Shown piece after piece: positions 22,869 through 63,849 of a DNA stretch of 64,000 nt (positions are counted from its first letter, which is position 1; every line of letters begins with the position of its first letter). Made by a program: the position numbers and the translations under genes. A model generated the notes under the pieces. The model worked only from the letters and a program-made list of their open reading frames with translations. It ran no database searches and had not been told where the DNA came from. Source of the stretch: an uncultured Gammaproteobacteria bacterium (GTDB lineage: Bacteria > Patescibacteriota > Microgenomatia > UBA10105 > UBA927); NCBI GenBank assembly GCA_964349125.1, contig CAYGFH010000001.1:133408-197407 (forward strand). Reading direction: 5' to 3'.

Positions 22869-22877
22869 AATACGTCC

Positions 22878-33832: not shown

Positions 33833-33855
33833 TCTATCCGTATAGATTTAAGAAT

Positions 33856-33925: not shown

Positions 33926-33934
33926 TGCTCTCTG

Positions 33935-37966: not shown

Positions 37967-38442
37967 AATCGTTCAATTCCTTTATGCCCCACAGGCGTTA
38001 ATACTTTTTCTCCACGCAGCTCAATATCATTTTGACTAACATACCCCAATTTCATTTGCTCTACTATCCATTCTTTATCATATCGAATATCATTTGTTGA
38101 AAAGTAAAAATCAACACCCAAAGCTAATACATGTTTAGTTCCATGTGGATATTCGCCACTTCCAATGCCTATACGAATTAATGGATTGATTTCATGCAAT
38201 TTTGCGACAATTATATCCGATAGGCCATCCCCTTCTCCTGAGTATTGTCCAAGATCCTTATGAAGGATCACAGATTCGATTTGTCTAATAGCAGGAGAAT
38301 CAATAAATCTCATCGCTGTCGAAAACAACGTAAAATATTTTGTTGCAATTCCCATATGAGTGAAGGATTCTGAGAATGCTTCTGCGAAACCTCCACCAAC
38401 GTCATGAATAAATAATGCTTTTGGATTTTTAACGTTGCCCAT
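37963..38442 (-). CDS. Hypothetical soluble protein, 159 aa.
   Basis: Intact ORF of a size typical of a small enzyme. Motifs HDVGGGFAEAF and IGIGSGEYPHGTKH are not assignable by eye. Its stop overlaps the stop of the convergent gene (TTAA). Confidence 0.5.
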   Translation of the reverse strand: MGNVKNPKALFIHDVGGGFAEAFSESFTHMGIATKYFTLFSTAMRFIDSPAIRQIESVILHKDLGQYSGEGDGLSDIIVAKLHEINPLIRIGIGSGEYPHGTKHVLALGVDFYFSTNDIRYDKEWIVEQMKLGYVSQNDIELRGEKVLTPVGHKGIERF

Positions 38443-40814: not shown

Positions 40815-41875
40815 ATACGAGGTTCTCCCGTGACTGTTGTAATCAGTGTATCAATTTTTCCGTTAAACACCGGCATGGAAAACCTGACAGCAGAGGATAT
40901 CGCGCTGCCGGAAAGTTTGGTGGACAGTTGCGGATCTGCCAATACATCGGCGGTCTTTGACACCAATTCATCAATATTTTTCCACAGATAACCGTTTTGG
41001 CCTTCCGTGACGATCTCCGGCAATCCGCCGCCGTCAAATACCACCGGCACGGCTCCTGCGCTCATAGCCTCCACGGGGGCGATGCCAAAATGCTCCATAT
41101 TCTCCGGCCTGGTTTCACCGTATCCGGCGGCATGCCAGTACACTGATGCCTGCTCATAGAGCGGTATAAGTGTTTCGTACGGACAATTTGGATAAAACGT
41201 GACAGGCAGTCCCGTGGCTCTCTGGCGGAGTTTGACAAGCGCATCATCATCACTGTGTAACACCCCACCTGCGAGTGCAAGCTGGTATCCGCTGTACCGC
41301 TTGATACGAAGCAGCCGCTCAAATGCGGATATCAGTACATCAAATTTCTTCGCATTATAGAGGCCGCCAAACCGGCCGACAGAAAGAATCAGTTTTAATT
41401 TCCCGACGACCGATCCCTGTATCGGATTTACAGGTGGATACACCACCTGTCCCGGTATACTATGGAGCACGGGATCTACATTTGCCTTGGTGAATTCTGA
41501 ATTATATACCACGGCGTTAATGCGCCATTTTTTCCAGAATGGCAATTCCATATGCGAAAATGGAACCTGCATATGGAGTATGTTGTGTTTTGCGAAGCTT
41601 ACAGGGATACTCCCGTCCGTTAAAAAAAATATCAGATCATACTGGCGACTCACCTGCAGTTTTTGAAATATAGATCCCCGCGCAAATACGTTGGGAACAA
41701 CAGAAACCGCAGGTAATTCCAGCTTGAACCGCTCCTGGGCTTTGTGCACTATATCCGGGTTATCCCAAAACACGTCCACAGAGTGGAGAACAGACAGATG
41801 AGAAGCGATCGCCAACATGTAGCGCTCTCCCCCGCCAAGCGAATCCAGATACGGACTAACGATGCCGATTTTCAT
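40811..41875 (-). CDS. Family 4 glycosyltransferase (GT-B).
   Basis: Start at MKIGIVSPYLDSLGGGERYML. C-terminal ENMEHFGIAPVEAMSAGAVPVVFDGGG. The first 20 nt overlap the end of the upstream YfhO gene. Confidence 0.8.
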   Translation of the reverse strand: MKIGIVSPYLDSLGGGERYMLAIASHLSVLHSVDVFWDNPDIVHKAQERFKLELPAVSVVPNVFARGSIFQKLQVSRQYDLIFFLTDGSIPVSFAKHNILHMQVPFSHMELPFWKKWRINAVVYNSEFTKANVDPVLHSIPGQVVYPPVNPIQGSVVGKLKLILSVGRFGGLYNAKKFDVLISAFERLLRIKRYSGYQLALAGGVLHSDDDALVKLRQRATGLPVTFYPNCPYETLIPLYEQASVYWHAAGYGETRPENMEHFGIAPVEAMSAGAVPVVFDGGGLPEIVTEGQNGYLWKNIDELVSKTADVLADPQLSTKLSGSAISSAVRFSMPVFNGKIDTLITTVTGEPRI

Positions 41876-44189
41876 AGAAAAATTTTGAGACTGTAACCAG
41901 TATAAGCGAAACCACCGCTCCCATGGCAATCCAAATTCCGAGTAAATACCCACCCGGTTTATAGGAAAATACCACTGTATGATCGCCTGCCGGGACTGCC
42001 ACAGCCCGGAAATCATAGTTTGCCCGCATCACAGGAAGCGGTTTTTTCCCATCGAGCATTGCTATCCATCCTGTATCATACACATCCGACAAAAACAGCA
42101 GTTTCGGGGTCTGAGAGCTGGTCTGTATTTCCACTCGGTTGGGTTTGTATGAACTGATTGTTGCTGAGCCGCTGCCCTCTTGTGGCATTTCTGAGGGTTC
42201 GCTCTCCAAAATAACAGTGTTTCGTAGATCCACAGCGCCTGAGTACAGTGTTTGTAGTATCTCTGCATCCGAAGATTTCACCACGTAGTTTCCCGCCAAA
42301 AAAGCCCGAGGGTAACTATCCGTATACTCATAGATCCAGTAGTCATCATCCGCGTACACCTGTTTCATCGTTCCGGCCTCTTCATACTCCCAGTACGGAA
42401 ATGCCCAAATCGCACGCATGTCACTTTTCCTGTGGTAGATATACCGCACACCCAAGAGCTTCAATAGTGTATCGCGGTGTACCCCGTGCTTATCAAATTG
42501 CACGACAGAGCGTTCAGGAGGGTTGGGATTCCCTTTAGATGCAGCCTGAATTAGCTCTCCATACCGCTTCTGATACATGGCATCATACCCCTCTACCAGC
42601 TGCAGTCCAAATGTGGTTGCCACTTCATTACCGATGTTTCCGAATACCCTGTTTTCCCCCGCATATTTTTGTAGAAACCCGAGCGAGGATACGGAGGGAT
42701 ACATAAATTTCCTGTCCTCAAACGGCATCCATTTAGAGGCAAATCTGTGCAAATCAAACAGAGAAAGAAGTAAAAGTATACATATGGCAAAGCCTCTGAT
42801 GAGATCGGATTTAACCAGTCCCACAAAAAGTAGAACAACTGTGACTCCTGCTATTCCCGTGGGCAGATACATATTCCGTTTTGCTATAGCAATCTTTTCG
42901 GCATCAAATGGCCTAATGAGGAACAACACAGCCCAAACAGCAGCAATCAAAACGAGTACCCCAGCGGAAAACGAAACCAATGATTTACTGTCAGCTTTTT
43001 TCCATACGTGGAGCAATTTGGAAAATCCGACAGCAGACAGGTACGCCAGTGAAAAACTGGTAAGTATCAGTATCCGTGACGCCGCACTTGTGGAAATTGC
43101 CGGAAGCCTGAGGAAAAACAGCAAATCACTCAGCGGAGACTGATACGCAAGCAGTAGTGTTGAGACTGCCACTCCCGCGAAAAACAGTTGCCGTTTCGTT
43201 TTTTTGCAGACAAAAGAAAATATCGCAAGAAGAAGTGGGATCACACCAATATATGATGCCCATTCGGCATAGTGTCCGAACCAGTCATTTCGTGTCACTG
43301 GATTTCCGTAAAAATCAGGGGAAAGGATAGTAATTATGTATTGCCACGGAATCACCTCACCTTTTATAAAGCTTGCGCTTCTCACGGATTCTGTGTACGC
43401 ATGAAATGTTAACAACAGCTGGGGTGCAGCAAAACCCAGAGCAAATGCTGTGTGAAACAGCAGAAATATTCCGCGAGCTATCCTTTTATGCCAATACGAG
43501 AGTGCAATGATATACAGGACACTTATCGACAATACGTACAGGCTTATCTGAAAATGTCCCGACATAAACGAAAACGCGAGCATAATCGCATAGAGCGAAG
43601 GGGCAAATTGCAGTTTCTTCGTAATATACGATGATATGAAAAATAACGACCATGGCAGCATTGCTGATGCCCATGAGAGCGTACCGTACGCCATCCAACC
43701 GACCATAAACCCGCAAAACATAAACGCCACGGATCCTATGAATGCGCCTATCCGTCCTGAGATTTTCTGCTCACTCAAAAACAGGTACATACCGATTCCT
43801 GCAACAAGAGGCTGGAGCAAAATCAGGAGGCTCCACGCATCGATAAACGGAAATATGAAAAATAGAAAAGTAAGCGGGGAAAAAATCGCTGTCTGGTAAT
43901 TGGCGGCATGGCCTGTGCCTGCAAAACTGTATGGATTCCAAAGCGGAGCTTCGGCGGATTTCCATGTATCCACCGTCAGCTTCTTCCACGGGTAGATCTG
44001 CGAAATAGTATCGGGCATTGCATTATTTTTTACCGCAGTGCCATACGTCGCATTCCACGGAGGAAATGAGGTCACCAGATACGTGGAGGGAAACGGTACC
44101 AGACCCTTTATAAAATACGGCGAAGAAAAAACAAACCAGAGTAACAGAATTCCCACAATCGGCCAAAATTTTAGAAGCTCCCTTTTCAT
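41856..44189 (-). CDS. YfhO-family polytopic membrane glycosyltransferase (GT-C). Homolog 3.
   Basis: ISQIYPWKKLTVDTWKSAEAPLWNPYSFAGTGHAANYQTAIFSPL. Confidence 0.8.
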   Translation of the reverse strand: MKRELLKFWPIVGILLLWFVFSSPYFIKGLVPFPSTYLVTSFPPWNATYGTAVKNNAMPDTISQIYPWKKLTVDTWKSAEAPLWNPYSFAGTGHAANYQTAIFSPLTFLFFIFPFIDAWSLLILLQPLVAGIGMYLFLSEQKISGRIGAFIGSVAFMFCGFMVGWMAYGTLSWASAMLPWSLFFISSYITKKLQFAPSLYAIMLAFSFMSGHFQISLYVLSISVLYIIALSYWHKRIARGIFLLFHTAFALGFAAPQLLLTFHAYTESVRSASFIKGEVIPWQYIITILSPDFYGNPVTRNDWFGHYAEWASYIGVIPLLLAIFSFVCKKTKRQLFFAGVAVSTLLLAYQSPLSDLLFFLRLPAISTSAASRILILTSFSLAYLSAVGFSKLLHVWKKADSKSLVSFSAGVLVLIAAVWAVLFLIRPFDAEKIAIAKRNMYLPTGIAGVTVVLLFVGLVKSDLIRGFAICILLLLSLFDLHRFASKWMPFEDRKFMYPSVSSLGFLQKYAGENRVFGNIGNEVATTFGLQLVEGYDAMYQKRYGELIQAASKGNPNPPERSVVQFDKHGVHRDTLLKLLGVRYIYHRKSDMRAIWAFPYWEYEEAGTMKQVYADDDYWIYEYTDSYPRAFLAGNYVVKSSDAEILQTLYSGAVDLRNTVILESEPSEMPQEGSGSATISSYKPNRVEIQTSSQTPKLLFLSDVYDTGWIAMLDGKKPLPVMRANYDFRAVAVPAGDHTVVFSYKPGGYLLGIWIAMGAVVSLILVTVSKFFYENRHR

Positions 44190-46776: not shown

Positions 46777-48240
46777 TCAGTGCCTCGCGACATTAACAAT
46801 TCCGGCTATTCTTTTCTTCTCAAAGTACCATACTATCGCTCCATATAGTATAACACCGAATATGGCCACCGAGGCCAGTTGGGTCGTATTATACGGCGCG
46901 GAACCCCTTGCCAGCTGATACCATGCTATCTGGACAAACGCAGCGACAAACGGCCATTTTACCTGGGACAAAAACGAGAAGTGGGCAATTTCCTTTGCCA
47001 TGCGAATCACAACAACGATGGCGAGGGACAACACGAGAAGCGTAATGGCAAACCCGTTAAACCCAAAAAGCGGGATAAATATCAGAGTCAGTATCCAAGT
47101 GCCCGCGGTCCAAAAGATCATGAGGAACATTGTTAATTTTATTTTCCCAACTGCATTGAGCGCATTGGTAAGGGGCGTAGAGAAGCCCGCAATAAGCGCG
47201 GAAATAACGAATATGTAAAATGACAACAGAGCGGGCTCCCATTTACCGTACTTTGGAATCAGTCTGACAGCAGGCTCCACAAAATACAGAAGTCCTACCG
47301 AAATCGGCAACATAGCCACTGACAGGCCGAATATCGTTTTTTCTATCGCATTACCCAGATGCTCCTTGGAATGCTGCAATCTGGAAAATGCAGGGAACGT
47401 GACGCGGATCACACTATCCATGATGAGGCGGATAGGCACCTCCGCCCATTTTTTTGCCCAGCCGATATATCCGATCTGTTCAAATGTCAGAATTTTCCCG
47501 AGAAACACTGTCATTAAATCATCCTTCACGAGAGCCAGCAGCGAATTCATCTGAAACGGTATGCCAAATTTCAATAACTTTTGGGCGACGGGTTTGGAAA
47601 TTCCAAACCTGATTTTCCAGGGGGAAATGATGTACATGAGGACAAACCCGACAACTGCCCGCGTCATGACAGCCCATGTGAAACTCGTTAACCCGTACCC
47701 TTTCCATGCCATAATGACGGCGACCGCATAAAACCCTATTGTTTCGGCAATTTGCGGTATGACCAGTTTGTTAAATTGCAGTTCCCGCTCAAGCAGTACG
47801 GATGGAATGGTCTTGAGCGAGGATATAAAAAATGAAAACACTAACGCCTGAAACAGCGCCACACCTGACTGATCGAGCGAGTAAAAAGCGGCGATGTATG
47901 TGGAAGATAAAAACGCTATAAGACTGACCGGGAATACCAATGCCTGTTGTATGGTAAATGTGGTTACCAAATCCTCGTCGGTAAGTTTTTCCTTCTTTTG
48001 AATCAGTGCGGCGGCCAGTCCGACGTCAGAGAAGTATGATAGAAACGATATTATTGCGGATACCACATAAAACACGCCAAACACCGAAGGGCTTAAAAAG
48101 ATGGTCAGCAGGAATGTGGATCCAAATGCGACGAGTTGCAGTAAAAATGTTCTGGAAGTCAGTGCTATAATTCCGATCAGTGATCGTTTTTTTATGGACT
48201 GTATATCTGTTTCTTCCATAGATACCTCAGAGTGTCGCAC
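46777..48240 (-). CDS. Wzx-like oligosaccharide flippase (MOP/PST superfamily). Second copy.
   Basis: 487 aa with about 12 or more TM helices. The N-terminus (SLIGIIALTSRTFLLQLVAFGSTFLLTIFLSPSVFGVFYV...AALIQ) is typical of the polysaccharide biosynthesis protein family. The start may be 48219. Confidence 0.75.
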   Translation of the reverse strand: MRHSEVSMEETDIQSIKKRSLIGIIALTSRTFLLQLVAFGSTFLLTIFLSPSVFGVFYVVSAIISFLSYFSDVGLAAALIQKKEKLTDEDLVTTFTIQQALVFPVSLIAFLSSTYIAAFYSLDQSGVALFQALVFSFFISSLKTIPSVLLERELQFNKLVIPQIAETIGFYAVAVIMAWKGYGLTSFTWAVMTRAVVGFVLMYIISPWKIRFGISKPVAQKLLKFGIPFQMNSLLALVKDDLMTVFLGKILTFEQIGYIGWAKKWAEVPIRLIMDSVIRVTFPAFSRLQHSKEHLGNAIEKTIFGLSVAMLPISVGLLYFVEPAVRLIPKYGKWEPALLSFYIFVISALIAGFSTPLTNALNAVGKIKLTMFLMIFWTAGTWILTLIFIPLFGFNGFAITLLVLSLAIVVVIRMAKEIAHFSFLSQVKWPFVAAFVQIAWYQLARGSAPYNTTQLASVAIFGVILYGAIVWYFEKKRIAGIVNVARH

Positions 48241-48961
48241 GCTTCCATGGCCGCTGCCAGAATAACCTCAGTAATCCCTCAATATCCCCCTGTGCAGTTT
48301 TTACAACCCGCACAGTTGAACCGGGATTATCTATCCATGTGACGTGTTCCTCGTATATCCGGAACCCCAGTTTTTCAGCAATGATTAACAGTTCACTGTC
48401 AAAGAACCATTCATCATCCTTCACAAGCGGCAGTATTTTTTTTGCGGCATCATCGCGAATCGCTTTAAATCCGCACTGGGCATCGGAAAACTGTACCCAA
48501 AAAATACTCTTGATCATCAGTATGTACGCTTTTGACGTTATGGTGCGAAGTAAGCTTCTCCCGTAGACTCGGGATCCCTGGGAATTTCGTGAACCGATCG
48601 CGATGTCATATCCGCGGATAAGGGAACGTACAAGTCCGGGAAGGTGTTTCAAGTCCGTGGACAAATCTATATCCATATAGCAGTGGATATCCGCCGGTGT
48701 TTGTAACCATGCCGCCTTTACCGCACGTCCGCGTCCTTTTTGTTTCAGGTGTAGTACGGATACTTCCTTATATTTTTTTGAAAGCTTTTGCGCAGCTTTC
48801 AATGTGCCATCCGTCGATGCGTTATCAGCGATGGTGATGCCCCAGGAAAAATCCGTAAGATCACTCTTGAGAAAACGGATCAGCGTTTCTGTATGATCTG
48901 CCAATTCTTCCTCTTCGTTATACACCGGAAGAACGATATTAAGTTTTGTTTTTTTGTCCAT
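48227..48961 (-). CDS. Family 2 glycosyltransferase. Likely a polyprenol-phosphate sugar synthase (DPM1/GtrB-like).
   Basis: LNIVLPVYNEEEEL...ITIADNASTDGT...MDIDLSTD. 244 aa. Confidence 0.8.
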   Translation of the reverse strand: MDKKTKLNIVLPVYNEEEELADHTETLIRFLKSDLTDFSWGITIADNASTDGTLKAAQKLSKKYKEVSVLHLKQKGRGRAVKAAWLQTPADIHCYMDIDLSTDLKHLPGLVRSLIRGYDIAIGSRNSQGSRVYGRSLLRTITSKAYILMIKSIFWVQFSDAQCGFKAIRDDAAKKILPLVKDDEWFFDSELLIIAEKLGFRIYEEHVTWIDNPGSTVRVVKTAQGDIEGLLRLFWQRPWKRATL

Positions 48962-50621
48962 AGAACAATAACCCTCCTAATAATAATATCGTCATTATAC
49001 TAATTATTTCACCTTGAGATTTAGCGGCAGTATTCTTATACTCCATGACCACCGTGTGGCTGCCTTCTTTCAGAGATATAGCCGGCAATCCACGTATAAT
49101 AGCAGGTTTTTCCTCCACGTCATCAACCCAGAATTTCCATCCCGGTATGTAGGCTTTCTGTATTAACATCGTGTGCTCTGTGTCATGTGACACAGAGATA
49201 CTGGCGTAGGTTGCGGTCCGTTTTTGTATGCTGATACTGGCTCCCGCTGTGGCTGATACCAGTGTGGTCGGGACTTCAGCCAGGCTTTTTGGTTTCAAAA
49301 TGGTGGATGGCAGGTATTCATCTGAGATCTTCGAGACACGAAACAGCAGATCTTCCGATGTATTGAGCATTTTCCTGTCAGGTTCATAGATATAGTTCGG
49401 CACAAAATTTTTTGCATTTACATAGATAGTCAGCCCTATCAATACCGCTAACACAGCGTACCTCGCCGGTTTCGAACGAAAACCCGTCATCACATACGCA
49501 CCTAATCCTCCCAGGGCAAACATTGCGACGGTTAACAGTCGCCATGGGTACTGGATAAATGATGTAAACGGAAGCAGTTTCCAAAACGGCTCCGACACGG
49601 GAAGCATACCTAGGATAGTCAGAATCAAAACAGCCAGTGATACCAGATAGAGCACCCCGCTTGTGCGAGTTCGTCGGTATCTCTGGTACAAAAACAGGAG
49701 GACAGACACAAGAGCAAACAGAATATGCAGCTTGCCAAGTTTAAATGACATCCCATCCTGAATACATCCTGCTGATGATCCCCCAAATCCCCATGGGGAA
49801 TTCCATAACTGGGTAGCACACAGGAAATGATCATAAAACCCTGTTTGCGCCGACTGTATCATCGCGGTAACTGATGTGGTATTCATTTCCAAAAACGCCG
49901 GGAGCCAGAAAAATGCACTAAGCCCCATTCCAAACATAACCACTGCAAAACAGTGTACGAATACGTGTATATGCACGTTACGTGCGATCAACTGCCTAAT
50001 ACACTCGGCCACAATGCACAGGAAAAAAATGAGTAGCGTTAATACACCGAGTATGGTATGGGAAAGAAATATTGCCGCCAGTCCTATGCTTCCCAGAAAT
50101 ATACCCGCATACGTGTTTTTCGCTCTGATACTGATAATTCCCAGTACGAATAATGGCAAAAAAGCAGCTGCCCAGAATTCTCCCACGGAGCCGCGAATGT
50201 AGAGCTGTACTGCGTGGTATGGAGCATATGAAAAAATGACAGAACCGACTACTGCCGACAATACACCGTACTGTGATGCAAAAAGTATAAAACTCAGTGC
50301 AGCGGCAAGCACAAATCCGAGCATAAACATGATTTTTGTGGCTACATAGGCATCGACACCCAGCGCGTACAGTGTGCCGCCCGCATAATACGGCAACGGA
50401 GAATAATATGCGAAGATCGGGTATCCCAATCCATATCCGAGGTGGTCAACCACACGAACCGGGAATTGCAGATCACGGATTGCGTCACCCATAGCGATCA
50501 CACGGGCAACCTGTGTGTCATCATGCATCGGGAAATAGCCGGTGCCAAACAGTGGGGACACTGCAAAGTACAGCAGGAGGACAGAAAGGATGAGTCCGAC
50601 AGTAAACTTCAGTGTGTTCAT
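48939..50621 (-). CDS. PTPS-related (PF10131-like) membrane protein, putative GT-C. Paralog 4 of 5.
   Basis: PMHDDTQVARVIAM...FPVRVVDHLGYGLGYPIFAYYSPLPYY and C-terminal KAYIPGWKFWVDD. Confidence 0.75.
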   Translation of the reverse strand: MNTLKFTVGLILSVLLLYFAVSPLFGTGYFPMHDDTQVARVIAMGDAIRDLQFPVRVVDHLGYGLGYPIFAYYSPLPYYAGGTLYALGVDAYVATKIMFMLGFVLAAALSFILFASQYGVLSAVVGSVIFSYAPYHAVQLYIRGSVGEFWAAAFLPLFVLGIISIRAKNTYAGIFLGSIGLAAIFLSHTILGVLTLLIFFLCIVAECIRQLIARNVHIHVFVHCFAVVMFGMGLSAFFWLPAFLEMNTTSVTAMIQSAQTGFYDHFLCATQLWNSPWGFGGSSAGCIQDGMSFKLGKLHILFALVSVLLFLYQRYRRTRTSGVLYLVSLAVLILTILGMLPVSEPFWKLLPFTSFIQYPWRLLTVAMFALGGLGAYVMTGFRSKPARYAVLAVLIGLTIYVNAKNFVPNYIYEPDRKMLNTSEDLLFRVSKISDEYLPSTILKPKSLAEVPTTLVSATAGASISIQKRTATYASISVSHDTEHTMLIQKAYIPGWKFWVDDVEEKPAIIRGLPAISLKEGSHTVVMEYKNTAAKSQGEIISIMTILLLGGLLFYGQKNKT

Positions 50622-52174
50622 GGTCTGTGTGTAGATGATGTTTTATGAAACAGCGCATGGAAGACCACAGGTGCACAGTAGTATACGAGGAAAAACAGTA
50701 TAGAAAACAGACTGATCATATCTGCCAGAAATCTGCTTTTTGTTTCCCTGAATTCCATAAAGAGTGTGTGAGTGCCTTCGAGTATCGGAATCTGCATAAC
50801 ACCAAGGTCATTGTTATATGCTATCGTTACCGGCTTATCATCCACCATTGCACCCCACCCCGGATAAAACAGACTGTTTATCTGCAGCAAACTGTTTTCA
50901 CTGGCGTCAATCGATACATGAACTCTATTTGTGTTTACTTCGATCGGCGTAATTTCGGCATTTCCCGTGAGAATTTCGATCCGCTTGTCAGCCCGGCGTG
51001 ACGGTATCACCGATACCCATCTGGGCATGTACTCATTGGCCACCGTTGTCGTTGCTTCGTTTGTACTGAAATACCCTTCCGGGTGTTCTATACTTTCCAC
51101 GTGTGCATACCCTGTGGCGTTATACCCAAACCATAGTATGGAAATAACTGCAATAAAAACCCCCAGTTTCTTGTATGAATCGGCTATATAGGAAATAAGC
51201 CAGGAACCGGCTACTAACCAAAACAAAAACAGGCGGTACGGAAATTGTATAAATAACTGCAGCGGTTTTAGGCTCCACAAAAAAGCACTGAGCTCACTGA
51301 TAAAAAATGCCCCGCCCACTACCAGTGCCGTAAACAATACCCTCTCCTTGTTATATTTTTTGGGTATCACAAACAGTAGTCCTATGCCTATAATGGCAAC
51401 GGGCGCGTTTTTAACCAGAAGATCAAAGCTTGCCGGGAAATAATGTAACGGGTTTGAAACACCCACCGAGTCAAATAGTACGAACCGCTTTTCAAGAAGC
51501 GCCGGTATCCAAAAAAATGCGGCAATTCCAATTGCTGAAAGTGTCGGCAACACAAACGATCGATCTTTCCGTATGTGCATGAGAGACACGAGGATCATGA
51601 GGAAAAACATCGCTGCGGTATTGTGACTCACGAGCATAAACGCGAGCATTGGGACGAACAGAAGTACATTTGCCGATTCGTACGCATGCAGTACACCGAA
51701 AAATGCAGATACCGCGACAACCTCACCGATTGATCCCCTCGTAAACACATCATACAGAAGATATGGATTGAGTATAAACGCAAGACTTCCCAGGAAACTG
51801 CCGAGCGAAGAAAAGTATTTCTTGAGCCATAAAAACAGAAAAACCACAGAACTTGTGACAGATCCGATCAGGATAATTTCTATAGAGGACCTGAATGAAA
51901 ATCCAATCAGATGCAGAACCGATCCGACGTACAAAAATCCCGGATACAAAAAATTTGCGACAGGGTATCCGTAGCTGTGATTCAGCCTGCCGAGTAACCG
52001 TACGGGAAATTGCCCATCACGTAAGCTCTGGTAAAACGCGGAAAGCCTGATAATCATCCAGTTTGCGTCGTCCGTTACGATGAATCCCGCACGGAAAATC
52101 GGAGCCAGCACGAAACTAAGCACGGCAAGAAGGAGCACCAGCCAAACACCGTACTGAATAAATGCACGTTTCAT
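50618..52174 (-). CDS. PTPS-related (PF10131-like) membrane protein, putative GT-C. Paralog 5 of 5, tandem to paralog 4.
   Basis: IVTDDANWMIIRLSAF...FPVRLLGRLNHSYGYPVANFLYPGFLY and C-terminal SLFYPGWGAMVDD. Confidence 0.7.
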   Translation of the reverse strand: MKRAFIQYGVWLVLLLAVLSFVLAPIFRAGFIVTDDANWMIIRLSAFYQSLRDGQFPVRLLGRLNHSYGYPVANFLYPGFLYVGSVLHLIGFSFRSSIEIILIGSVTSSVVFLFLWLKKYFSSLGSFLGSLAFILNPYLLYDVFTRGSIGEVVAVSAFFGVLHAYESANVLLFVPMLAFMLVSHNTAAMFFLMILVSLMHIRKDRSFVLPTLSAIGIAAFFWIPALLEKRFVLFDSVGVSNPLHYFPASFDLLVKNAPVAIIGIGLLFVIPKKYNKERVLFTALVVGGAFFISELSAFLWSLKPLQLFIQFPYRLFLFWLVAGSWLISYIADSYKKLGVFIAVISILWFGYNATGYAHVESIEHPEGYFSTNEATTTVANEYMPRWVSVIPSRRADKRIEILTGNAEITPIEVNTNRVHVSIDASENSLLQINSLFYPGWGAMVDDKPVTIAYNNDLGVMQIPILEGTHTLFMEFRETKSRFLADMISLFSILFFLVYYCAPVVFHALFHKTSSTHRP

Positions 52175-52214: not shown

Positions 52215-53729
52215 TTATTTTTTCTCAGACTGAGCAGGACGGATTTTATACAAGCGGATGTGAGATTTTTCGTTGTGGGCCTTTCGTATTTCCATCACCA
52301 TATCCATCGGCCAATCAGGTTTTTCCTGTGTGAGGTTGGTTATATAGTACGTCGATTTGCTCTTGGATTTTTCGGCGATGTAGTCTGGTATGGTTTTGGA
52401 TGGCGGCCATACGCCGTGAATTTCAATCTTTTTATTCTGGTGGAGATATATCTCAAGCGCATACGGTAGCAGTCCGAATGTGCCTTCGGTATATACAGCA
52501 ATTTCTTCGCCGGTGGATTTTTCACTAAGCAGACTCACTATTTCTTTCACTCCCCATCCTGACGGCCAGTCATTTATAAGCTGTCCGATGTCAGATTTGG
52601 GAATAAAGGCGCGGGACACATCTGTGAGAATCGTGCCGGACATATACAGTGCCTGGAGACAACAGAGTATGACTATGGCGAATTTCTGATACTGCTTCGA
52701 CGCGTAGGCGGTGAGCCGTTCAACAGTTACTGCAGTAAGGATAAGGATAGGCATGGCCATCGGTAGGAGGTATCGCGCGTAGAGCACTTTTCCAAACAGG
52801 GCAAGCGCAACAAACGGCAATATCCACCAGATAATAAGCACTATTTTTTCTTTCAGTTTCCCCCGCACGAGTACGAAAGATAATATAGCCAATACGCACC
52901 AGGAAATTGTCACATAATTGATAAACCAATCTGACATGCCATATAAATTTCCGACAAAAAATGTAAACGGATGCGTGATCCACTCTTTAAATGGATACAC
53001 AAATATAGTATTTTTCTGGGCGATAATATAGAAATACGGAGAGAGCCGGAGGATACTGTACAGCACCTGGGACAACACTGTCGCCACTACAGAAAGCCCT
53101 ACCCACGACCACAGGCGTTTTTTCAGATTTTGCTTCCTCCAATCAAACAGTACAAGCGTGAAAGGCTGTAAATACAAGCTCAAAAATCCCGAACTTTTAT
53201 TCAGCATTCCAAGAGCCAGTGACATTCCGAAAATCAGTGCGATATCCAGCCGTACATACCGCACAAGAAGTATCGCTATATATATATTCCATACGTACAG
53301 TGCGCTCGTCAGGGAATCATAAATCGCGAGCCTATCATACATGAGTGCAAACGGAGATACGAGATACAGGAAGCTGGATATAAGACCTAACCGTTTACTC
53401 TTAAATAGCTCATATCCGACGGCAAACATGCCCCACATCCCCAGTAAACCTGAAAATACCGATACCGTGCGCCCGGCAACGAGCGGATCTGATATGACAC
53501 GCAGTGCCGCCATCATAAACCATGTAAATAACGGCTGTTTCCCATCGGTTAACGATATGTACCGCCATGACGCATCAGTGGCGCCAATTTGCGACCAGCG
53601 AATGTAGATGGCCTCGTCCGTAAAAATCGGTAATGAGGTCAAATTATACAGTCTAACGCACACATAAAATACTGATAATACGAAGAGCCAAACAAATGCA
53701 TTTTTGAATACTTTTTTCATAGTGGACAT
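52215..53729 (-). CDS. ArnT/PMT-like (GT39/83-like) GT-C glycosyltransferase.
   Basis: A DE motif in the first loop (PIFTDEAIYIRWSQIG). 504 aa, polytopic. Confidence 0.7.
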   Translation of the reverse strand: MSTMKKVFKNAFVWLFVLSVFYVCVRLYNLTSLPIFTDEAIYIRWSQIGATDASWRYISLTDGKQPLFTWFMMAALRVISDPLVAGRTVSVFSGLLGMWGMFAVGYELFKSKRLGLISSFLYLVSPFALMYDRLAIYDSLTSALYVWNIYIAILLVRYVRLDIALIFGMSLALGMLNKSSGFLSLYLQPFTLVLFDWRKQNLKKRLWSWVGLSVVATVLSQVLYSILRLSPYFYIIAQKNTIFVYPFKEWITHPFTFFVGNLYGMSDWFINYVTISWCVLAILSFVLVRGKLKEKIVLIIWWILPFVALALFGKVLYARYLLPMAMPILILTAVTVERLTAYASKQYQKFAIVILCCLQALYMSGTILTDVSRAFIPKSDIGQLINDWPSGWGVKEIVSLLSEKSTGEEIAVYTEGTFGLLPYALEIYLHQNKKIEIHGVWPPSKTIPDYIAEKSKSKSTYYITNLTQEKPDWPMDMVMEIRKAHNEKSHIRLYKIRPAQSEKK

Positions 53730-53786: not shown

Positions 53787-54956
53787 TCAATGCGTACGCC
53801 GTCTTCTATATCCCATATACAGGACACTCAACACTGAGACCGCAATCGGTATAGCGGTAACCCAGAGTTTGACAGCGGGAGCAGGATCATTCCAGTGACC
53901 CAGATACAGGTACGGCACATATCGCAGCAGTAAGCCCATGGATACACCGAACGATAACACAGCCACTCTCGGGTACTCAGGTACGAGTGCAACGAACGGA
54001 ACTATCCAGACCCAATACCAGCTCAAGACTTCCCGTTGAAATAGCACGGCTATAAACCCGAGAATCATCCCTCCCAGGGCAATTTTTCTGTTCCATTTGA
54101 AGAAAAACGCAGGGATAAGGAAAATCGTCATAAGTTTCATGGCGATGGAAACAGACAGGACAAACCAAGACGCCCATTTCTGTGAATTTCGGTATAGCAC
54201 AAGTGACCATACGGCTATCGCCATCATGACGATATCGTTATGGGGACTTATAAGGCACTCAACTAAAACAAGTGGGTTGAGTGAAAATATCACAGTTCCC
54301 GCCCGGACTAGTGACGCGTTTTTACCCTGTAGTGCCCTCTCAATCCCTAGGATGGTGAGAAGGTAAAACAGCCCGATATACAGCTTGAAGTTAACAATAA
54401 GAAGTAGTAGTTTCCCGAATCCAAAAAGATACGGCACCAGTGTGGACACTATCCATAGGGGTGTGTAGGCGCTCGGCAAGTGAGTCCAATGCATGAACGA
54501 CAGCCATGGATCCACACCCGTAAACTGCAGCGGTATAACCTCGTAAGGATTTTTATGATATATGAGTACCGTTTTTGCCGTAAACAGATAATTGAAAAAG
54601 TCGTAGGAAAATGCGGGAAATGCGGCAAGTGAAACACCCCAGATGAGAATCACAATACTCCAAAACTGTTTCCGGGAAACCTTTCCCTGGTAGGCCAGTC
54701 GAATCATGCTCCCGTATAACACAAACAGCGGCAATAGTATCCCGATATAAAGAGATGCGGAAAGTGGCCTGTTAAAGAATCCGATTGACTGAAACTGTCT
54801 TTGGATCGCTCCGACAACACTTGACTGAGAGAGCGTTAACCCCAGGTCAATCTGAGTATACGAGTACAATACAAACAGGAGAAGCACCAGAGCGTATAGT
54901 GCTGCGAGAGTACCCGATTGCAGATAACTCAATCCTGCTTTATTTTTCTGTACCAT
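53787..54956 (-). CDS. Polytopic membrane protein, DUF2029/GT87-like candidate GT-C. Paralog of 17046..18194.
   Basis: FSYDFFNYLFTAKTVLIYHKNPYEVIP. Start uncertain (54956 or 54974). Confidence 0.6.
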   Translation of the reverse strand: MVQKNKAGLSYLQSGTLAALYALVLLLFVLYSYTQIDLGLTLSQSSVVGAIQRQFQSIGFFNRPLSASLYIGILLPLFVLYGSMIRLAYQGKVSRKQFWSIVILIWGVSLAAFPAFSYDFFNYLFTAKTVLIYHKNPYEVIPLQFTGVDPWLSFMHWTHLPSAYTPLWIVSTLVPYLFGFGKLLLLIVNFKLYIGLFYLLTILGIERALQGKNASLVRAGTVIFSLNPLVLVECLISPHNDIVMMAIAVWSLVLYRNSQKWASWFVLSVSIAMKLMTIFLIPAFFFKWNRKIALGGMILGFIAVLFQREVLSWYWVWIVPFVALVPEYPRVAVLSFGVSMGLLLRYVPYLYLGHWNDPAPAVKLWVTAIPIAVSVLSVLYMGYRRRRTH

Positions 54957-55701
54957 AGCGACCCCTCCACGCATACATGCGTATGGTGAGAATATCCGAA
55001 ATACCCTGGATGGTGTCTTTAATCGGGTTTACTCTGCGGGTCTCCACATAATGCCACTCAACAGGAACTTCACGAATGACAAACCCAAGAATTTTGGCGA
55101 CAAAGAGTAATTCTATATCAAATCCAGCAGTCACCATAGCGCCGCTCACATGTTTAGACTGTCCGTATATAGACAGGTGCGCTATGATTCGATGCGCTGC
55201 TTTTTTCTTAAATGCCTTAAATCCGCACTGAGTGTCGGAAATACCATGTAAGCCCAAAATTACAGTACGCAGAAACATAAATCCCCGTGCCATAATTTTT
55301 CGAAGTAGCGGCGCACCTTCCCGTTTCCCCTGCCTTGAGCCTATTACCACATCCACACCTTTTTCAAACCACGGAAGCACCTGTTCCAATTCCTTAAGCG
55401 GCGTGGCCTGGTCTAGGTCAGAGAACAGTATGATCGATCCGTTTGCCTGCTTGAGCCCTGTCACCACTGTTGCCGCTTTTCCCTGATGCGGATTTTTGAC
55501 TATCGTGAATCCTTTATTTTCGTGAGCGAAATCCTCGATTAACGTGACGCTGGCATCAGAAGAGCCGTCATCAATTATGAGAACCTCCCAGGTATAGGAC
55601 TGCTTATTGAGGTAGCGTGCAACTTTTTCAAGGGCGCCCAACCTGATATTTGTTTCTTCATTGTACGATGGAATGATTACAGATAAATATGGTTCTTTCA
55701 T
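54940..55701 (-). CDS. Family 2 glycosyltransferase. Likely a polyprenol-phosphate sugar synthase (DPM1/GtrB-like).
   Basis: LSVIIPSYNEETNI...LIIDDGSSDAS...SDLDQ. 253 aa. Confidence 0.85.
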   Translation of the reverse strand: MKEPYLSVIIPSYNEETNIRLGALEKVARYLNKQSYTWEVLIIDDGSSDASVTLIEDFAHENKGFTIVKNPHQGKAATVVTGLKQANGSIILFSDLDQATPLKELEQVLPWFEKGVDVVIGSRQGKREGAPLLRKIMARGFMFLRTVILGLHGISDTQCGFKAFKKKAAHRIIAHLSIYGQSKHVSGAMVTAGFDIELLFVAKILGFVIREVPVEWHYVETRRVNPIKDTIQGISDILTIRMYAWRGRYGTEK

Positions 55702-55702: not shown

Positions 55703-57247
55703 TTACTTTTCTTCGGTGTACTTCACTAATTTATAAATTTTTACCACAGATACGTCCCACTTTCCTGCAATTTCCGCTCTACCGAATCCGGAAATTTCCC
55801 ACAGTGAATGCCCAAGCGGTTCGCAGTTGGTATCCTCACACACAACCAGCAACTGGTCAGTCACTGTTTTGCGCTCCGAATCATTTGCTGCATTTTCTAT
55901 GACCACGGGCGGGCGTCCCCAAATTTCAAAAAAATATCTGTACGCATGATCTGAGTTTCCTCCGGTGACGAGGGCAAAGTTAAATGGTTTTCCATCAGTT
56001 TTATCCAGTACGGCACGTGCTATAGTTTTTGCCTGATTTAACTGACGGTTTGGTTCATGTAAAAATGGCCTGCCCTGCCAGTTAAAAATAATGATGAGAG
56101 TGAAGGCTAGAGCTGCAACACATTTCCCGATTTTACCCCGAGTCCATACTGCCCAAAACAACAGTGCGGTAAATAGAAATGGAACGATAAAAAATATGCC
56201 GAAATAATAATCGTAAATCGACTTCTTATAGATTCCAAATAGACACAGGCCGGAAGCGACCCACAGGTATAACAGGAGTAACATATCCCGCTGACGCTTT
56301 GTAAACTGACCTTTGTACCAAAAAATCATAGGCACCAGCGTTGCAGTAATGGCAGTTGCCCATGTACCGATCGTCCACACCTGTTTTTGGTACGCAGTCA
56401 GTTTATCAAACATTCCCCCATCAGGTATCCGAAGGATCAATCGCCCAAAGAGGCGGAAAAATACATCACGTATGTTCCACACAAAATGGCTTGCTGAAAA
56501 TCCGGTGTCCTTCCCTGCAAGTACAAACTCCATAATGCCTTTTGTGTTTGTAAACTCATGTCTGAATTCGAATGCTACAAATGGAGAAAAGCCGGCCAGA
56601 AATCCAATGATACTGTACCCGATACCTTTGAGAGACTCCATCTTCAGGCGCAGTATCATCCAGATATATACGACGGGAAACAGAAACAAAAATGTGTAGT
56701 GCAGTTGTATACCTATACCCATAATCACCCCTATCCAAAATGCCAGAGATAATTTTTTGCTTTCGGTAAACCTGAAGCAGAGATAGATTAGTGCTGTGGA
56801 GAAAAATGGTACTAGGTTAGGATTCCACGAGGACCGCGAATATGCGATTACCAGAGGTGACAACGCGTAGATAGCCGCCGCGGTAATAGCCACAAACCTG
56901 CCGAAAAAATCCAGTCCCATTTTATAGAGCAGATAGATGGTAGCCACTCCTACGAGAGCAACCATAATCGCGGGGCCAACAGGGTCCAGTTTGGCTGCCC
57001 AGAGAAACGGCAGCATGAAATAGTAGTAGATCGGGCCCATATAAAATCCGCCTACTGACGCGGTCGGGCCAAGGAGAGTGAATTTACCGTCAACTATCAT
57101 GCGTTTCACAACCAAGACATCGCGCCCTTCGTCTCCGAGAAACGTCAGATAATCGCCAATTCGATATAACCGCAAATAAGCACCGATCAGTAATATCGAA
57201 ATAAGAGGAATAGCACTTGTGTATATTCGACGAAGGAACGCTACCAT
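55703..57247 (-). CDS. ArnT/PMT_2-like polytopic membrane glycosyltransferase candidate (DxGRD subfamily).
   Basis: FLGDEGRDVLVVKRMIVDGKFTLLGPTASVGGFYMGPIYYYFMLPFLW. I prefer the ATG at 57247. The ORF track extends to 57304. Confidence 0.7.
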   Translation of the reverse strand: MVAFLRRIYTSAIPLISILLIGAYLRLYRIGDYLTFLGDEGRDVLVVKRMIVDGKFTLLGPTASVGGFYMGPIYYYFMLPFLWAAKLDPVGPAIMVALVGVATIYLLYKMGLDFFGRFVAITAAAIYALSPLVIAYSRSSWNPNLVPFFSTALIYLCFRFTESKKLSLAFWIGVIMGIGIQLHYTFLFLFPVVYIWMILRLKMESLKGIGYSIIGFLAGFSPFVAFEFRHEFTNTKGIMEFVLAGKDTGFSASHFVWNIRDVFFRLFGRLILRIPDGGMFDKLTAYQKQVWTIGTWATAITATLVPMIFWYKGQFTKRQRDMLLLLYLWVASGLCLFGIYKKSIYDYYFGIFFIVPFLFTALLFWAVWTRGKIGKCVAALAFTLIIIFNWQGRPFLHEPNRQLNQAKTIARAVLDKTDGKPFNFALVTGGNSDHAYRYFFEIWGRPPVVIENAANDSERKTVTDQLLVVCEDTNCEPLGHSLWEISGFGRAEIAGKWDVSVVKIYKLVKYTEEK

Positions 57248-57255
57248 AAATCGTA

Positions 57256-58371
57256 TTAAATGCGCCGTTTCCAAATAACTCTGGAATACATTATATAGTT
57301 CCAAATGAGACCGCAGAATATTCCGAACAGATAAAATATTCTGTATTCTGAAACTCCATACAGATGGGTCCCTATATGGACGCTTATGGCCTGCAGAGAT
57401 AATGCGCCTAGGGAGGTCATATTAAACTGGAGAAATTTATTTACCCGTTGGTCGCGACCTATTTTCCGATCCCTGAACGTCCATGAATTATTCAGTTTAT
57501 AGTTAGAAAGTATAGCAGCTTCAGCTCCAAACATGCTACCGATTGTGGGATGTAACCCGAAATACACCAATAACTCAAGAATTACCGTGTTTATAAGAAA
57601 CCCTATGGACCCCACGACCAGAAATTTTGAGAAACTATGTGCCAACACGTCATTCATCCGTGCCTTCCAGACGTATAGCATGACTTTTCGAATATATTCA
57701 GAAGGAACAATTTTCGATTTCCCAAAACGCCTGTCAGTGAAATGTATCGGAACCTCGGCAACCTTCGCACCTGCAAGAACCGATTTATGAAGAAATGCAA
57801 TTTGAAAGACATATCCGCTGTACTCTTCCACCTGAGTGTGAAGCTTTTCAAAATATACCTTATGAAACGCACGAAACCCACCTGTCCAATCATGAATTGA
57901 CGGTACACCTAGTCCAAACCTGACTATGGAGTTTGCGACGATGCTGAATATTTTCCGGTGTATCCCCCAGTTATCCGGTATAGATCCGCCTTTTATGTAC
58001 CGACATCCCACCACAAAATCTGACCCTTTGCTTAACGCCTGCAAAAATTTTGGAATTACTTTGGGGTCGTGTGACAAATCCGCATCCATTTGGAGTATAT
58101 ACTCGGCTTCCATCTTCTCAACCGCGTACGTCATACCACGAAGTAATGCTTTGCCTAATCCTTCTTTGGAACCGCTCAGCAGAAACACATCTTTGTATTT
58201 TTTCTGATACTCGCCCACTACGTCACGGGTTCCGTCCGGTGAGGTATCATCAACGACCAGATAGCGTATGGAATATTCCTTGATATCACCAAGGATCTCA
58301 CGCAGCATATCCAACAGTCGTATGATATTGTCCCTCTCGTTGTATGTAGGGAGAATGATGACCAGTTTCAT
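57256..58371 (-). CDS. Polyprenol-phosphate sugar synthase (GT2, DPM1-like) fused to a C-terminal GtrA-like membrane domain.
   Basis: N-terminus MKLVIILPTYNERDNI...LVVDDTSPDGT...MDADLSHDP. C-terminus with about 4 TM segments (KFLVVGSIGFLINTVILELLVYF...LSNYKLNNSWTF), typical of the GtrA family. Confidence 0.8.
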   Translation of the reverse strand: MKLVIILPTYNERDNIIRLLDMLREILGDIKEYSIRYLVVDDTSPDGTRDVVGEYQKKYKDVFLLSGSKEGLGKALLRGMTYAVEKMEAEYILQMDADLSHDPKVIPKFLQALSKGSDFVVGCRYIKGGSIPDNWGIHRKIFSIVANSIVRFGLGVPSIHDWTGGFRAFHKVYFEKLHTQVEEYSGYVFQIAFLHKSVLAGAKVAEVPIHFTDRRFGKSKIVPSEYIRKVMLYVWKARMNDVLAHSFSKFLVVGSIGFLINTVILELLVYFGLHPTIGSMFGAEAAILSNYKLNNSWTFRDRKIGRDQRVNKFLQFNMTSLGALSLQAISVHIGTHLYGVSEYRIFYLFGIFCGLIWNYIMYSRVIWKRRI

Positions 58372-58385
58372 ATGAGCCACGTGTC

Positions 58386-59342
58386 CTATACTCTCTCGCG
58401 CCAATAGTTGAGGAGATCTTCCATTGTTTGTTTGAATGGCACGTTTGGCTTCCATCCTGTTTTGGTGACAAATTTACTGTTATCACCCAGAAGCACTGGT
58501 ACATCGCTTGGTCTCATGCGCGCTGGATCCGGCTTTATCTCGACTTTCACTTTGGACATGGAGAGCAACATATCAAGCATATCTCCTATTTTGATTGTTG
58601 TTCCTGTGCATATATTGTACACGTCACCCGGATCACACTTCTCTACAGCCAACAAGTATGCTGCTACCATATCTCGTACGTCTGTGTAGTCCCGTGTCGC
58701 ATCGAGGTTTCCCACATGGATGATAGGTTCCTGCTTTCCCTTTTCGATCATGGCGATTTGCTTCGCAAAATTTGATTCTGCAAACGTATCTCCACGCCGT
58801 GGACCTGTGTGGTTGAATCCCCGTGTTCTGATAATTCGTTCTTTATAGGATTGGTAATACTGGTACCCCAGATAGTCCATCGCGACTTTTGATACCGCAT
58901 ATGGGCTCAAAGGTCGAAGTGGGTTTGTCTCTTTTATTGGCACTTCATTTTCATATACCATTCCATATTCTTCTGAAGAACAGGCAATTTGGATTACAGG
59001 ATCAATCCCGGCCATTCGCACTGCTTCAAACAAATTGGCGGATCCGACGATGTTTACCTCAAGGGTTACAGAAGGTGATACCCAGGATGTAGGCACAAAT
59101 GATTGTGCGGCCAAATGGAACACGTAATCCGGCTTTATGCGGGACATAGTTGAATACATACTGTGCGTATCCATAAGATCCGCATCTTCCAGGTGTAATT
59201 TGTTTATGATTGATTCAATATGATCAGTCTTACTGCGGGGACGAACAAATCCGTACACTTCATACCCTTTGGACAGCAAAAGCTCCGCGAGATGACTTCC
59301 AACAAATCCGGCTATACCACTGATAAATGCTTTTTTTTGCAT
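58386..59342 (-). CDS. NAD(P)-dependent sugar-nucleotide 4,6-dehydratase/reductase of the Gmd/Rmd family.
   Basis: ISGIAGFVGSHLAELLLSKGYEVYGFVR, HLAAQSFV and GNLDATRDYTDVRD motifs. A GGAGG SD lies 4 nt upstream of the ATG. Confidence 0.8.
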   Translation of the reverse strand: MQKKAFISGIAGFVGSHLAELLLSKGYEVYGFVRPRSKTDHIESIINKLHLEDADLMDTHSMYSTMSRIKPDYVFHLAAQSFVPTSWVSPSVTLEVNIVGSANLFEAVRMAGIDPVIQIACSSEEYGMVYENEVPIKETNPLRPLSPYAVSKVAMDYLGYQYYQSYKERIIRTRGFNHTGPRRGDTFAESNFAKQIAMIEKGKQEPIIHVGNLDATRDYTDVRDMVAAYLLAVEKCDPGDVYNICTGTTIKIGDMLDMLLSMSKVKVEIKPDPARMRPSDVPVLLGDNSKFVTKTGWKPNVPFKQTMEDLLNYWRERV

Positions 59343-62617: not shown

Positions 62618-62619
62618 AG

Positions 62620-63830: not shown

Positions 63831-63849
63831 AACGTAACCTCCTCTTTCT

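Follow-up and report, generated by a model that had tools for sequence, protein, structure and literature searches.

In multi-component transmembrane glycosylation, a glycosyltransferase (GT) of the GT-A type makes a polyprenyl-phosphate sugar, which passes through a flippase to a membrane-embedded transferase of the GT-C type (PMC8035078). GT-Cs of the YfhO type glycosylate teichoic acids in this way (PMC8035078). The characterized members include YfhO of Bacillus subtilis and Staphylococcus aureus, which adds N-acetylglucosamine (GlcNAc) to lipoteichoic acid, and Lmo1079 of Listeria monocytogenes, which adds GlcNAc to wall teichoic acid. They also include streptococcal PgtC2, PgfM1, and PgfM2, which act in protein O-glycosylation; streptococcal YfhO-type GT-Cs glycosylate Ser/Thr-rich regions of membrane proteins (10.1101/2024.05.05.592596). 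The Pgf cluster comprises one GT-A, PgfS, and two GT-Cs, PgfM1 and PgfM2, working on the same targets: PgfM1 is needed for the attachment of N-acetylgalactosamine, and without PgfM2 the product migrates differently (10.1101/2024.05.05.592596). This cluster is a precedent for neighboring GT-Cs that work one after the other on the same acceptor. The GacI/GacK/GacL variant of Streptococcus pyogenes associates a soluble GT-A with a Wzx-type flippase (PMC8035078). Finally, the family PF10131 ('PTPS_related') is listed in the Pfam GT-C clan CL0111, with unknown function (PMC7801869). Here, we analyze five paralogous membrane proteins related to these families, encoded in a stretch of 64,000 nucleotides (hereafter, the window) at positions 133,408 to 197,407 of contig CAYGFH010000001.1 (assembly GCA_964349125.1). 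We argue that they are probably extracytoplasmic GT-Cs that depend on polyprenyl-phosphate sugars, form a short branch related to YfhO, and have distinct specificities.

The five genes were first proposed as uncharacterized, PF10131-like paralogs by a reading of the DNA made without database searches (hereafter, the sequence-only reading). All five open reading frames (ORFs) are present exactly at the positions it gave. We name their types after the motif of their N-terminal loop: 15472-17049 (minus strand, 525 amino acids (aa)) and 19618-21282 (minus strand, 554 aa) are of the THDG type, and 28763-30391 (plus strand, 542 aa) is of the SHDG type. The two others form a tandem pair on the minus strand, with 50618-52174 upstream (518 aa, (T/S)DD type) and 48939-50621 downstream (560 aa, MHDD type). 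The proteins match each other over their full length in BLASTP (E 5e-29 to 1e-74, 23-33% identity), well above what chance would give, and form one paralog family. An all-vs-all BLASTP comparison of the 51 long ORFs of the window revealed no sixth member.

The relation to PF10131 holds for four of the copies, which pass the gathering cut-off of 26.4 bits (whole-protein score): 19618-21282 with 50.4 bits, the best of the five, 15472-17049 with 37.8, 28763-30391 with 33.2, and 48939-50621 with 31.6. It does not hold for 50618-52174, which has no Pfam match even at E <= 1, as is the case for most of its orthologs. This copy is joined to the family by BLASTP (E 1e-29 to 2e-51), and the profiles of its orthologs and of those of 48939-50621 align with an hhalign probability of 100% (E 3e-86, 487 columns). 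The PF10131 matches begin around residue 70, at profile position 1, and cover only positions 1 to ~320 of 621. Hence, the Pfam model omits the first transmembrane (TM) helix and the invariant Asp of the loop that follows it, and its C-terminal half is a poor fit to these proteins. The five have no match in NCBIfam. When their profiles were searched against the sequences of the whole PDB, the hits were noise, with a casein kinase as the best (E 0.19). The family itself is large: its profile recovers 24,436 clusters at 50% identity with E <= 1e-3, and 6,623 with E <= 1e-30. We found no paper that characterizes PF10131, in agreement with the description of the family as uncharacterized.

We then asked which known GT-C family is the closest. 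The profile of the five aligns to the three YfhO proteins of the window with an hhalign probability of 95.8% (E 7e-9, 344 columns), against 2.7% for the window's PMT_2 group. This indicates that they are YfhO-like, not PMT/ArnT-like; they also have no PF13231 match, and a close relationship to PMT_2/ArnT was rejected. The C-terminal module matches the C-terminus of YfhO as well (18 bits in Pfam for 15472-17049; BLASTP E 1e-5 to 8e-4). None of the five reaches the gathering cut-off of the YfhO family PF09586 (28.5 bits), and only 15472-17049 gives a score. Judging from these profile comparisons, the five are short YfhO-like GT-Cs, with YfhO as their closest known family, and not PMT_2 proteins of the PMT/ArnT type. 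A very different role is implied by the name '6-pyruvoyl-tetrahydropterin synthase related', after which NCBI names one ortholog, i.e., that the five act in pterin metabolism. The Pfam/NCBI name is the one argument for it, and it is opposed by a GT-C fold and by a neighborhood entirely devoted to glycan biosynthesis. Furthermore, Pfam scans of the five report no soluble PTPS catalytic domain and no other domain. We thus rejected a pterin function, whose probability we regard as negligible.

The conservation of residues is informative on the likely active site. Two signatures had been proposed as common to the five proteins. The N-terminal one, (T/S)HDG...P.RW...LN.GYG, is exact in 15472-17049, 19618-21282, and 28763-30391, but the tandem pair carries the variants PMHDD...PVRV...LGYGLGYP and VTDDA...PVRL...LNHSYGYP. 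At the C-terminus, PGW...D is invariant in all five and is followed by a hydrophobic last helix, with the difference that the tandem pair reads PGW....DD. When the five proteins are aligned, 40 columns are invariant; the HDG Asp (D34 in 48939-50621) and the C-terminal PGW...D are among them. In a wider alignment of 101 sequences, drawn from three ortholog groups and from the five copies of the window, there are 18 invariant columns: D34, R40, R56, G66, P75, Y79, Y135, R143, E148, H188, P241, E245, W347, Q357, P359, R361, P493, and T531. Every one of them is located either in an outside loop or at the outer end of a helix. The first extracytoplasmic loop of 48939-50621 (residues 26-90; 50352-50546, minus strand) includes the invariant D34, R40, R56, G66, P75, and Y79. 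The search for conserved acidic residues in this loop, suggested by the sequence-only reading, thus points to a single Asp, D34 (codon 50520-50522), which sits nine residues past the first TM helix. GT-C enzymes such as ArnT, PglB, and PMT have a catalytic acidic residue at this loop position, and D34 is presumed to be the catalytic Asp. Its counterpart in 50618-52174 is D36 (codon 52067-52069). Separately, C268 (49818-49820) and C286 (49764-49766) of 48939-50621 are conserved in at least 90% of its ortholog group. Both belong to an insert in an outside loop, NSPWGFGGS.PGC.DGMSF, which the group of 50618-52174 lacks, and they may form an extracytoplasmic disulfide.

To characterize the fold, we used two AlphaFold models, built on 81 and 71 homologs, with a predicted local distance difference test (pLDDT) of 91.7 and 91.1 and a predicted TM-score (pTM) of 0.92. 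Both show a C-terminal beta-domain followed by the last TM helix. The model of 48939-50621 has 12 TM helices, in a multi-spanning core with GT-C architecture, and a C-terminal domain located outside (residues 407-531 by DSSP; 49029-49403, minus strand). Within the latter, a beta-sandwich at about residues 455-530 carries the PGW motif (P493-W495), and the final TM helix follows at 48948-49028. Solved GT-Cs match the fold at TM-scores of 0.40-0.47, with AftD, AftA, STT3, PglB, and AglB among the top structural matches. The GT-C interpretation put forward by the sequence-only reading is supported for fold, topology, and context; the lack of any match to PF10131 or to a GT-C fold, which would have spoken against it, is not what we observe. 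The beta-sandwich has weak structural matches to accessory domains of glycoside hydrolases, a likeness that would lean slightly toward a glycan as acceptor.

The topology was assessed from the distribution of charges. With the 12 helices of the model and 81 sequences, Lys and Arg account for 34% of the residues in the presumed cytoplasmic loops, against 7.6% in the regions outside, and the C-terminal tails are basic in all five proteins. Following the positive-inside rule, this bias places the N-terminal loop and every invariant residue outside the cytoplasm. A cytoplasmic location of the conserved loop motifs, raised at the outset as a reason to abandon the GT-C interpretation, is thus not what the charges indicate. 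The topology would be N-in/C-in, with the loops 26-90 and 241-296 and the domain 407-531 outside.

The two genes of the tandem pair overlap by 4 bp (ATGA), which suggests that they are translationally coupled. Their products share only 23% identity, and either one resembles a paralog encoded elsewhere in the window more than its neighbor; they also belong to separate ortholog groups. A recent tandem duplication was therefore rejected, and the pair appears to be an ancient arrangement. The same may be said of the five copies as a whole. For the three paralogs that were searched, 120 out of 120 hits each were reciprocal-best to the query, whose bit score exceeded that of the second-best paralog by a median factor of 2.2 or more, and each ortholog group carries its own loop motif (MHDD, (T/S)DD, or THDG). 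These patterns suggest five ancient, separately conserved ortholog groups, which fits the differences in specificity proposed by the sequence-only reading.

Are both proteins of the pair enzymes? One of them could act as a non-catalytic partner with a GT-C fold that binds the lipid or the acceptor for the other, as PIG-U does in the glycosylphosphatidylinositol transamidase. The copy 50618-52174 is the most divergent of the five, lacks a Pfam match, and is without the Cys-containing outside insert of its partner. The pair is also strictly co-conserved and translationally coupled, and two copies are fused in one ORF elsewhere. Yet the subfamily of 50618-52174 keeps all 18 invariant residues, including the loop Asp, and has two invariant Asp in this loop, D35 and D36. 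We regard a non-catalytic partner as improbable. Since both tandem proteins keep every family-wide invariant residue, both are probably catalytic.

Fused copies occur in the metagenomic ORFs P0361, P0363, P0364, P0365, and P0456, which have two to six complete family copies per polypeptide and reach up to 3,329 aa. In P0361, a single ORF of 1,116 aa (locus L085, 6001-9351; JGI Ga0434945_000342), there are two full copies in a PMT_2...Wzx/GT2 context, and the C-terminal half is most similar to 48939-50621. This fusion hints at functional coupling, but an artefact of assembly or gene calling could also explain it. An N-in/C-in topology would allow such fusions.

To study the genetic context of the pair, we compared 42 Gottesmanbacteria-like loci and 38 loci from other Microgenomates (Woese-, Shapiro-, and Amesbacteria). 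In all 42 of the former, the ortholog of 48939-50621 is preceded by a member of the family, and in 40 a PMT_2 gene lies upstream of the pair. The full block, i.e., PMT_2, GT-C, GT-C, GT2, and Wzx in the same order and strand, is found in 33 out of 42 loci, the position of Wzx being conserved in this same number. In the window, the first gene of the block encodes a PMT_2-type GT-C (52215-53729, minus strand, 504 aa; PF13231, 38.9 bits), and the last one a Wzx-type flippase (46777-48240, minus strand, 487 aa; Polysacc_synt_3, 179.6 bits). Between the pair and the flippase, directly downstream of 48939-50621, is a soluble GT2 (48227-48961, minus strand, 244 aa; PF00535, 70.9 bits) with no TM peak. 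The GT2 is the most conserved gene of the block (61-89% identity), followed by Wzx (55-85%) and the GT-Cs (35-58%). Outside the Gottesmanbacteria-like loci, at least two adjacent copies of the family are found in 24 of the 38 loci, and at least three in 17. Concerning the taxonomy of these data, the relatives come nearly all from genomes of Candidatus Gottesmanbacteria, Microgenomates, and Patescibacteria. Dozens of records of metagenome-assembled genomes (MAGs) from binchicken and SRP co-assemblies, entitled 'uncultured Gammaproteobacteria bacterium' (e.g., L004, L005, and L009-L012), share the syntenic block with Gottesmanbacteria genomes, and these titles look like placeholders or wrong taxonomy. 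The 'Bacteroidia' record L038 and the 'Clostridia' MAG L052/L056 may be mis-binned contigs.

The contexts of 19618-21282 and 15472-17049 are also conserved. The orthologs of 19618-21282 across Gottesmanbacteria have 52-59% identity, and the context of this gene is kept in locus L084. Directly downstream of it is a GT2 (18854-19648, minus strand, 264 aa; PF00535, 76.5 bits) whose single hydrophobic segment is C-terminal (TM peak at residue 211); the two genes are adjacent in L084 too, which makes this GT2 a candidate donor synthase for 19618-21282. The ortholog of 15472-17049 has the same gene context in L084: downstream of it come a GT4, then a GT2 (13742-14428, minus strand, 228 aa) and a second Wzx-type flippase (12480-13739, minus strand, identified by Wzx Pfam matches), in the same order. 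The gene 28763-30391, for which the representative P0362 is 84% identical, lies directly downstream of a full-length YfhO gene (26251-28779). In contig JBAQFJ010000001.1, the neighborhood of the ortholog of 19618-21282 repeats the order of the window at ~11.7-22.9 kb and lies ~20 kb from the tandem pair of that genome. Hence, the supercluster is conserved as a whole.

The homology, the fold, the conserved residues, and the synteny of the five proteins are observed directly. From the fold and the adjoining GT2 and flippase genes, we infer that their donor is lipid-linked; their catalysis and acceptor are likewise deduced. GT2 genes adjoin three of the five paralogs, and their best NCBIfam matches are PgfS, ArnC, dolichyl-phosphate hexose transferase, AglJ, and PpgS, all far below the equivalog cut-offs. 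Thus, 48227-48961 matches best PgfS, ArnC, and dolichyl-phosphate hexose transferase, below cut-off in each case, and is a candidate for the polyprenyl-phosphate-sugar synthase that would make the donor. For 13742-14428, the best match is AglJ (E 2e-33), followed by dolichyl-phosphate hexose transferase and ArnC, again below cut-off. As to flippases of the GtrA or Wzx type, such genes are encoded alongside: the two Wzx genes at 46777-48240 and 12480-13739, and a fusion of a GT2 with a GtrA domain at 57256-58455.

Under the mechanism that we favor, by analogy with the multi-component systems above, the small GT2 next to the GT-Cs would use a nucleotide sugar to glycosylate polyprenyl phosphate on the cytoplasmic side of the membrane. 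A Wzx- or GtrA-type flippase would then turn the lipid-linked sugar outward, and each GT-C paralog would attach it at its own site on an acceptor at the cell surface. The proteins are predicted to have 12 TM helices each and both termini in the cytoplasm. In their long first outside loop, the one invariant Asp would serve as catalytic base or metal ligand, and the invariant Arg, Glu, and His at the outer helix ends would bind the lipid phosphate. The beta-sandwich outside, tethered by the last TM helix, probably holds the acceptor, which could be a wall or membrane glycopolymer (slightly favored) or Ser/Thr-rich surface proteins. The five copies most likely differ in donor, acceptor, or linkage, and the two tandem proteins probably catalyze successive steps or form a complex.

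The choice of acceptor sets this mechanism apart from a variant of it, in which the five would be protein O-glycosyltransferases that use polyprenyl-phosphate sugars to attach monosaccharides to Ser/Thr-rich regions of proteins that are secreted or membrane-bound (S-layer proteins, pilins, lipoproteins), like streptococcal PgtC2 and PgfM1/PgfM2 or the actinobacterial PMTs. PgtC2, PgfM1, and PgfM2 are of the YfhO family and act on Ser/Thr-rich regions of proteins, the Pgf cluster combines a single GT-A with a pair of GT-Cs, the GT2 adjoining the tandem pair has PgfS as its best NCBIfam match, and a PMT_2 gene precedes the pair in 40 of the 42 loci. However, the PgfS match scores 47 bits, far from the cut-off of 500, and the window encodes no candidate acceptor protein. 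The outside beta-sandwich weakly resembles accessory domains of carbohydrate-active enzymes, and the rml genes, the many GT2 and GT4 genes, and the two Wzx are as in polysaccharide loci. We regard protein O-glycosylation as a real possibility, though less likely than not.

Several points weigh against the assignment of the five as GT-Cs that use polyprenyl-phosphate sugars. The GT2s are taken as lipid-phosphate sugar synthases from best hits that are below every NCBIfam equivalog cut-off. The GT2 of 244 aa lacks a TM helix, and we identified no partner for it that resembles GacJ. The usual substrates of Wzx proteins are oligosaccharides linked to diphosphate, and the block could instead belong to a repeat-unit pathway that depends on Wzx, in which the GT-Cs would do something else. 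In the window, we recognized no phosphoglycosyltransferase that could initiate synthesis, and no polymerase or ligase. The likeness to solved GT-Cs is moderate (the TM-scores of 0.40-0.47 come with 9-15% identity), and none of the solved structures is related in sequence, so that the catalytic role of D34 is argued from its position and conservation. Lastly, we found in the literature no PF10131 member with a measured activity, donor, or acceptor.

The entire 64-kb window is a glycan-synthesis locus. According to the Pfam scans, it includes ~17 GT2/GT4 genes, two Wzx-type flippases, and one GT2-GtrA fusion. Besides the five paralogs, there are ~15 further GT-C-like genes, for a total of ~20 GT-Cs, and the locus is indeed full of glycosyltransferases, as the sequence-only reading had it. 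Among these further genes, 10 or 11 have PMT_2 matches (in the regions 9238-10560, 21279-26203, 30378-35605, 36632-37966, 52215-53729, and 55703-57304), three are full-length YfhO (26251-28779, 38586-40814, and 41856-44189), and two form a GT87/MptA_B-like pair. The genes with PMT_2 or YfhO matches, ~13 in all, fall into paralog groups of their own, one with genes starting at 22878, 24539, 30378, 33935, and 32114, and another with genes starting at 21279, 55703, and 36632. The GT87-like pair consists of multi-TM paralogs of 382 aa (17046-18194) and 395 aa (53787-54974), related at E 1.5e-38, one of which has a weak GT87 match. Their ortholog in L084 has a match to PF26314 (MptA_B_family), the family of the mycobacterial lipomannan mannosyltransferases. 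Each of the two genes adjoins a YfhO-like copy or sits within the conserved block. The GT2 fused to a GtrA/DPMS transmembrane domain (57256-58455, minus strand, 399 aa) adjoins the PMT_2 GT-C at 55703-57304, and is a candidate for a lipid-phosphate sugar synthase and flippase in a single protein.

The genes for sugar-nucleotide supply flank these transferases: RmlA (63093-63887), RmlC (62620-63096), RmlB-like (61601-62662), RmlD (60738-61604), UDP-glucose dehydrogenase (59367-60665), a second 4,6-dehydratase/decarboxylase-like gene (58386-59342), and a DegT aminotransferase with a hexapeptide acetyltransferase (6610-8372). They suggest, as building blocks, rhamnose, a uronic acid or pentose, and N-acetylated amino-deoxy sugars. 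Three other genes of the window are worth a mention. A small ORF of 189 aa (18318-18887) with one N-terminal TM segment and a weak DUF5667 match has no family assigned, and L084 has an ORF of 195 aa in the same position. A soluble protein of 159 aa (37963-38442), also with no family assigned, lies between a PMT_2 gene and a YfhO gene. The third is a membrane protein of 796 aa with no Pfam match (37-2427, minus strand). By eye, it has a GT-C/YfhO-like layout, with 'GGDD' soon after the first TM helix and a C-terminal 'NGYANGW...' before the last TM helix. We considered it as a sixth member of the family, which was unconfirmed: hhalign comparisons with the family and with the YfhO trio were not significant.

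The abundance of GT-Cs in the window brings up another type of activity. The five could build or attach a polymer, either as processive GT-Cs like the mycobacterial Emb, Aft, and Mpt, or, in the manner of oligosaccharyltransferases and ligases, by transferring en bloc a Wzx-flipped, diphosphate-linked oligosaccharide. Mycobacterial arabinogalactan and lipomannan are assembled outside the cytoplasm by GT-Cs, and a locus with ~20 GT-C genes resembles this assembly. The best structural matches include AftD, AftA, STT3, PglB, and AglB, the block regularly contains a Wzx flippase, and MptA_B/GT87-like genes adjoin two of the copies. Yet in sequence the five are related to YfhO, whose characterized members add single sugars. 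Furthermore, no STT3-type soluble domain is predicted in them, and a WWDYG-like motif was not seen, albeit without a systematic search. We consider polymer building or attachment unlikely, and keep the assignment of the five as YfhO-related GT-Cs.

A broader interpretation, which we put forward as speculative, is that the five paralogs are parts of a conserved extracytoplasmic glycan assembly line of Microgenomates-type bacteria of the Candidate Phyla Radiation (CPR). It would use ~20 GT-Cs of the YfhO-like, YfhO, PMT_2, and MptA/GT87-like types, with several lipid-sugar synthases and flippases, to make a surface coat outside the membrane, either a complex glycopolymer or a glycoprotein coat, and the tandem pair would be an obligate heteromeric GT-C. 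Its logic could be comparable to that of the assembly of mycobacterial arabinogalactan and lipomannan. The organism is a member of Gottesmanbacteria and hence of the CPR/Patescibacteria, whose genomes are reduced and which are believed to grow on the cells of a host. The locus takes up at least 64 kb of a contig of 809-840 kb. It amounts to ~8% of the genome, whose size is probably close to 1 Mb. Its gene order is kept between genomes whose proteins share only 40-55% identity, which suggests a core component of the envelope as product, and not an antigen that varies. It could play a part in attachment to the host and in the chemistry of the CPR envelope, and the interest would be greater if the locus does encode a core Microgenomates envelope polymer assembled outside the membrane.

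Independently of this interpretation, the fold, the topology, and the conserved residues now connect the large PF10131 family with the GT-C glycosyltransferases, specifically with YfhO, and a sister branch without Pfam annotation is brought into it. The block of a GT2, a Wzx, and three GT-Cs is small enough for heterologous expression. The link between PF10131 and YfhO, the sister branch undetected by Pfam, the five-gene block, and the supercluster of ~20 GT-Cs are new relative to the databases. The literature search found nothing relevant on GT-C enzymes or mannosyltransferases in CPR, Microgenomates, or Gottesmanbacteria, but its coverage was limited and does not by itself prove novelty.

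How does the locus compare with the known families and systems? Regarding PF10131, four of the five pass its gathering score, whereas 50618-52174 and most of its orthologs are unmatched, and the matches concern the N-terminal half of the 621-position model only. Regarding the solved GT-Cs to which we compared the models, i.e., ArnT (5F15), Pmt4 (9E61), Pmt1-Pmt2 (6P2R), STT3/PglB/AglB, and AftA/AftD, the present proteins differ in having a small beta-sandwich as soluble domain, followed by an extra TM helix; identity is 6-15%, and no sequence relation was detected to any PDB chain. The GacI/GacJ/GacK/GacL system of S. pyogenes is similar in that the block, too, brings together a small soluble GT2, a Wzx-type flippase, and GT-C genes, which are neighbors and are conserved jointly. 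It has one GT-C, whereas the block has three (one PMT_2 and two YfhO-like), and no partner like the small membrane protein GacJ was identified here. The closest comparison is with YfhO. The five proteins are 200-300 residues shorter (518-560 aa, against 742-842 aa for the YfhO of the window) and have their own loop motifs, and the flippase of the conserved block is of the Wzx type and not of the GtrA/GtcA type. In spite of these differences, the TM cores are homologous at the profile level, the C-terminal beta-domain and the final TM helix are shared, and some orthologs of the five carry precomputed PF09586 matches. The genomic logic is also the same, a GT-A with a flippase and a GT-C, and the YfhO systems provide a precedent for two GT-Cs within one cluster.

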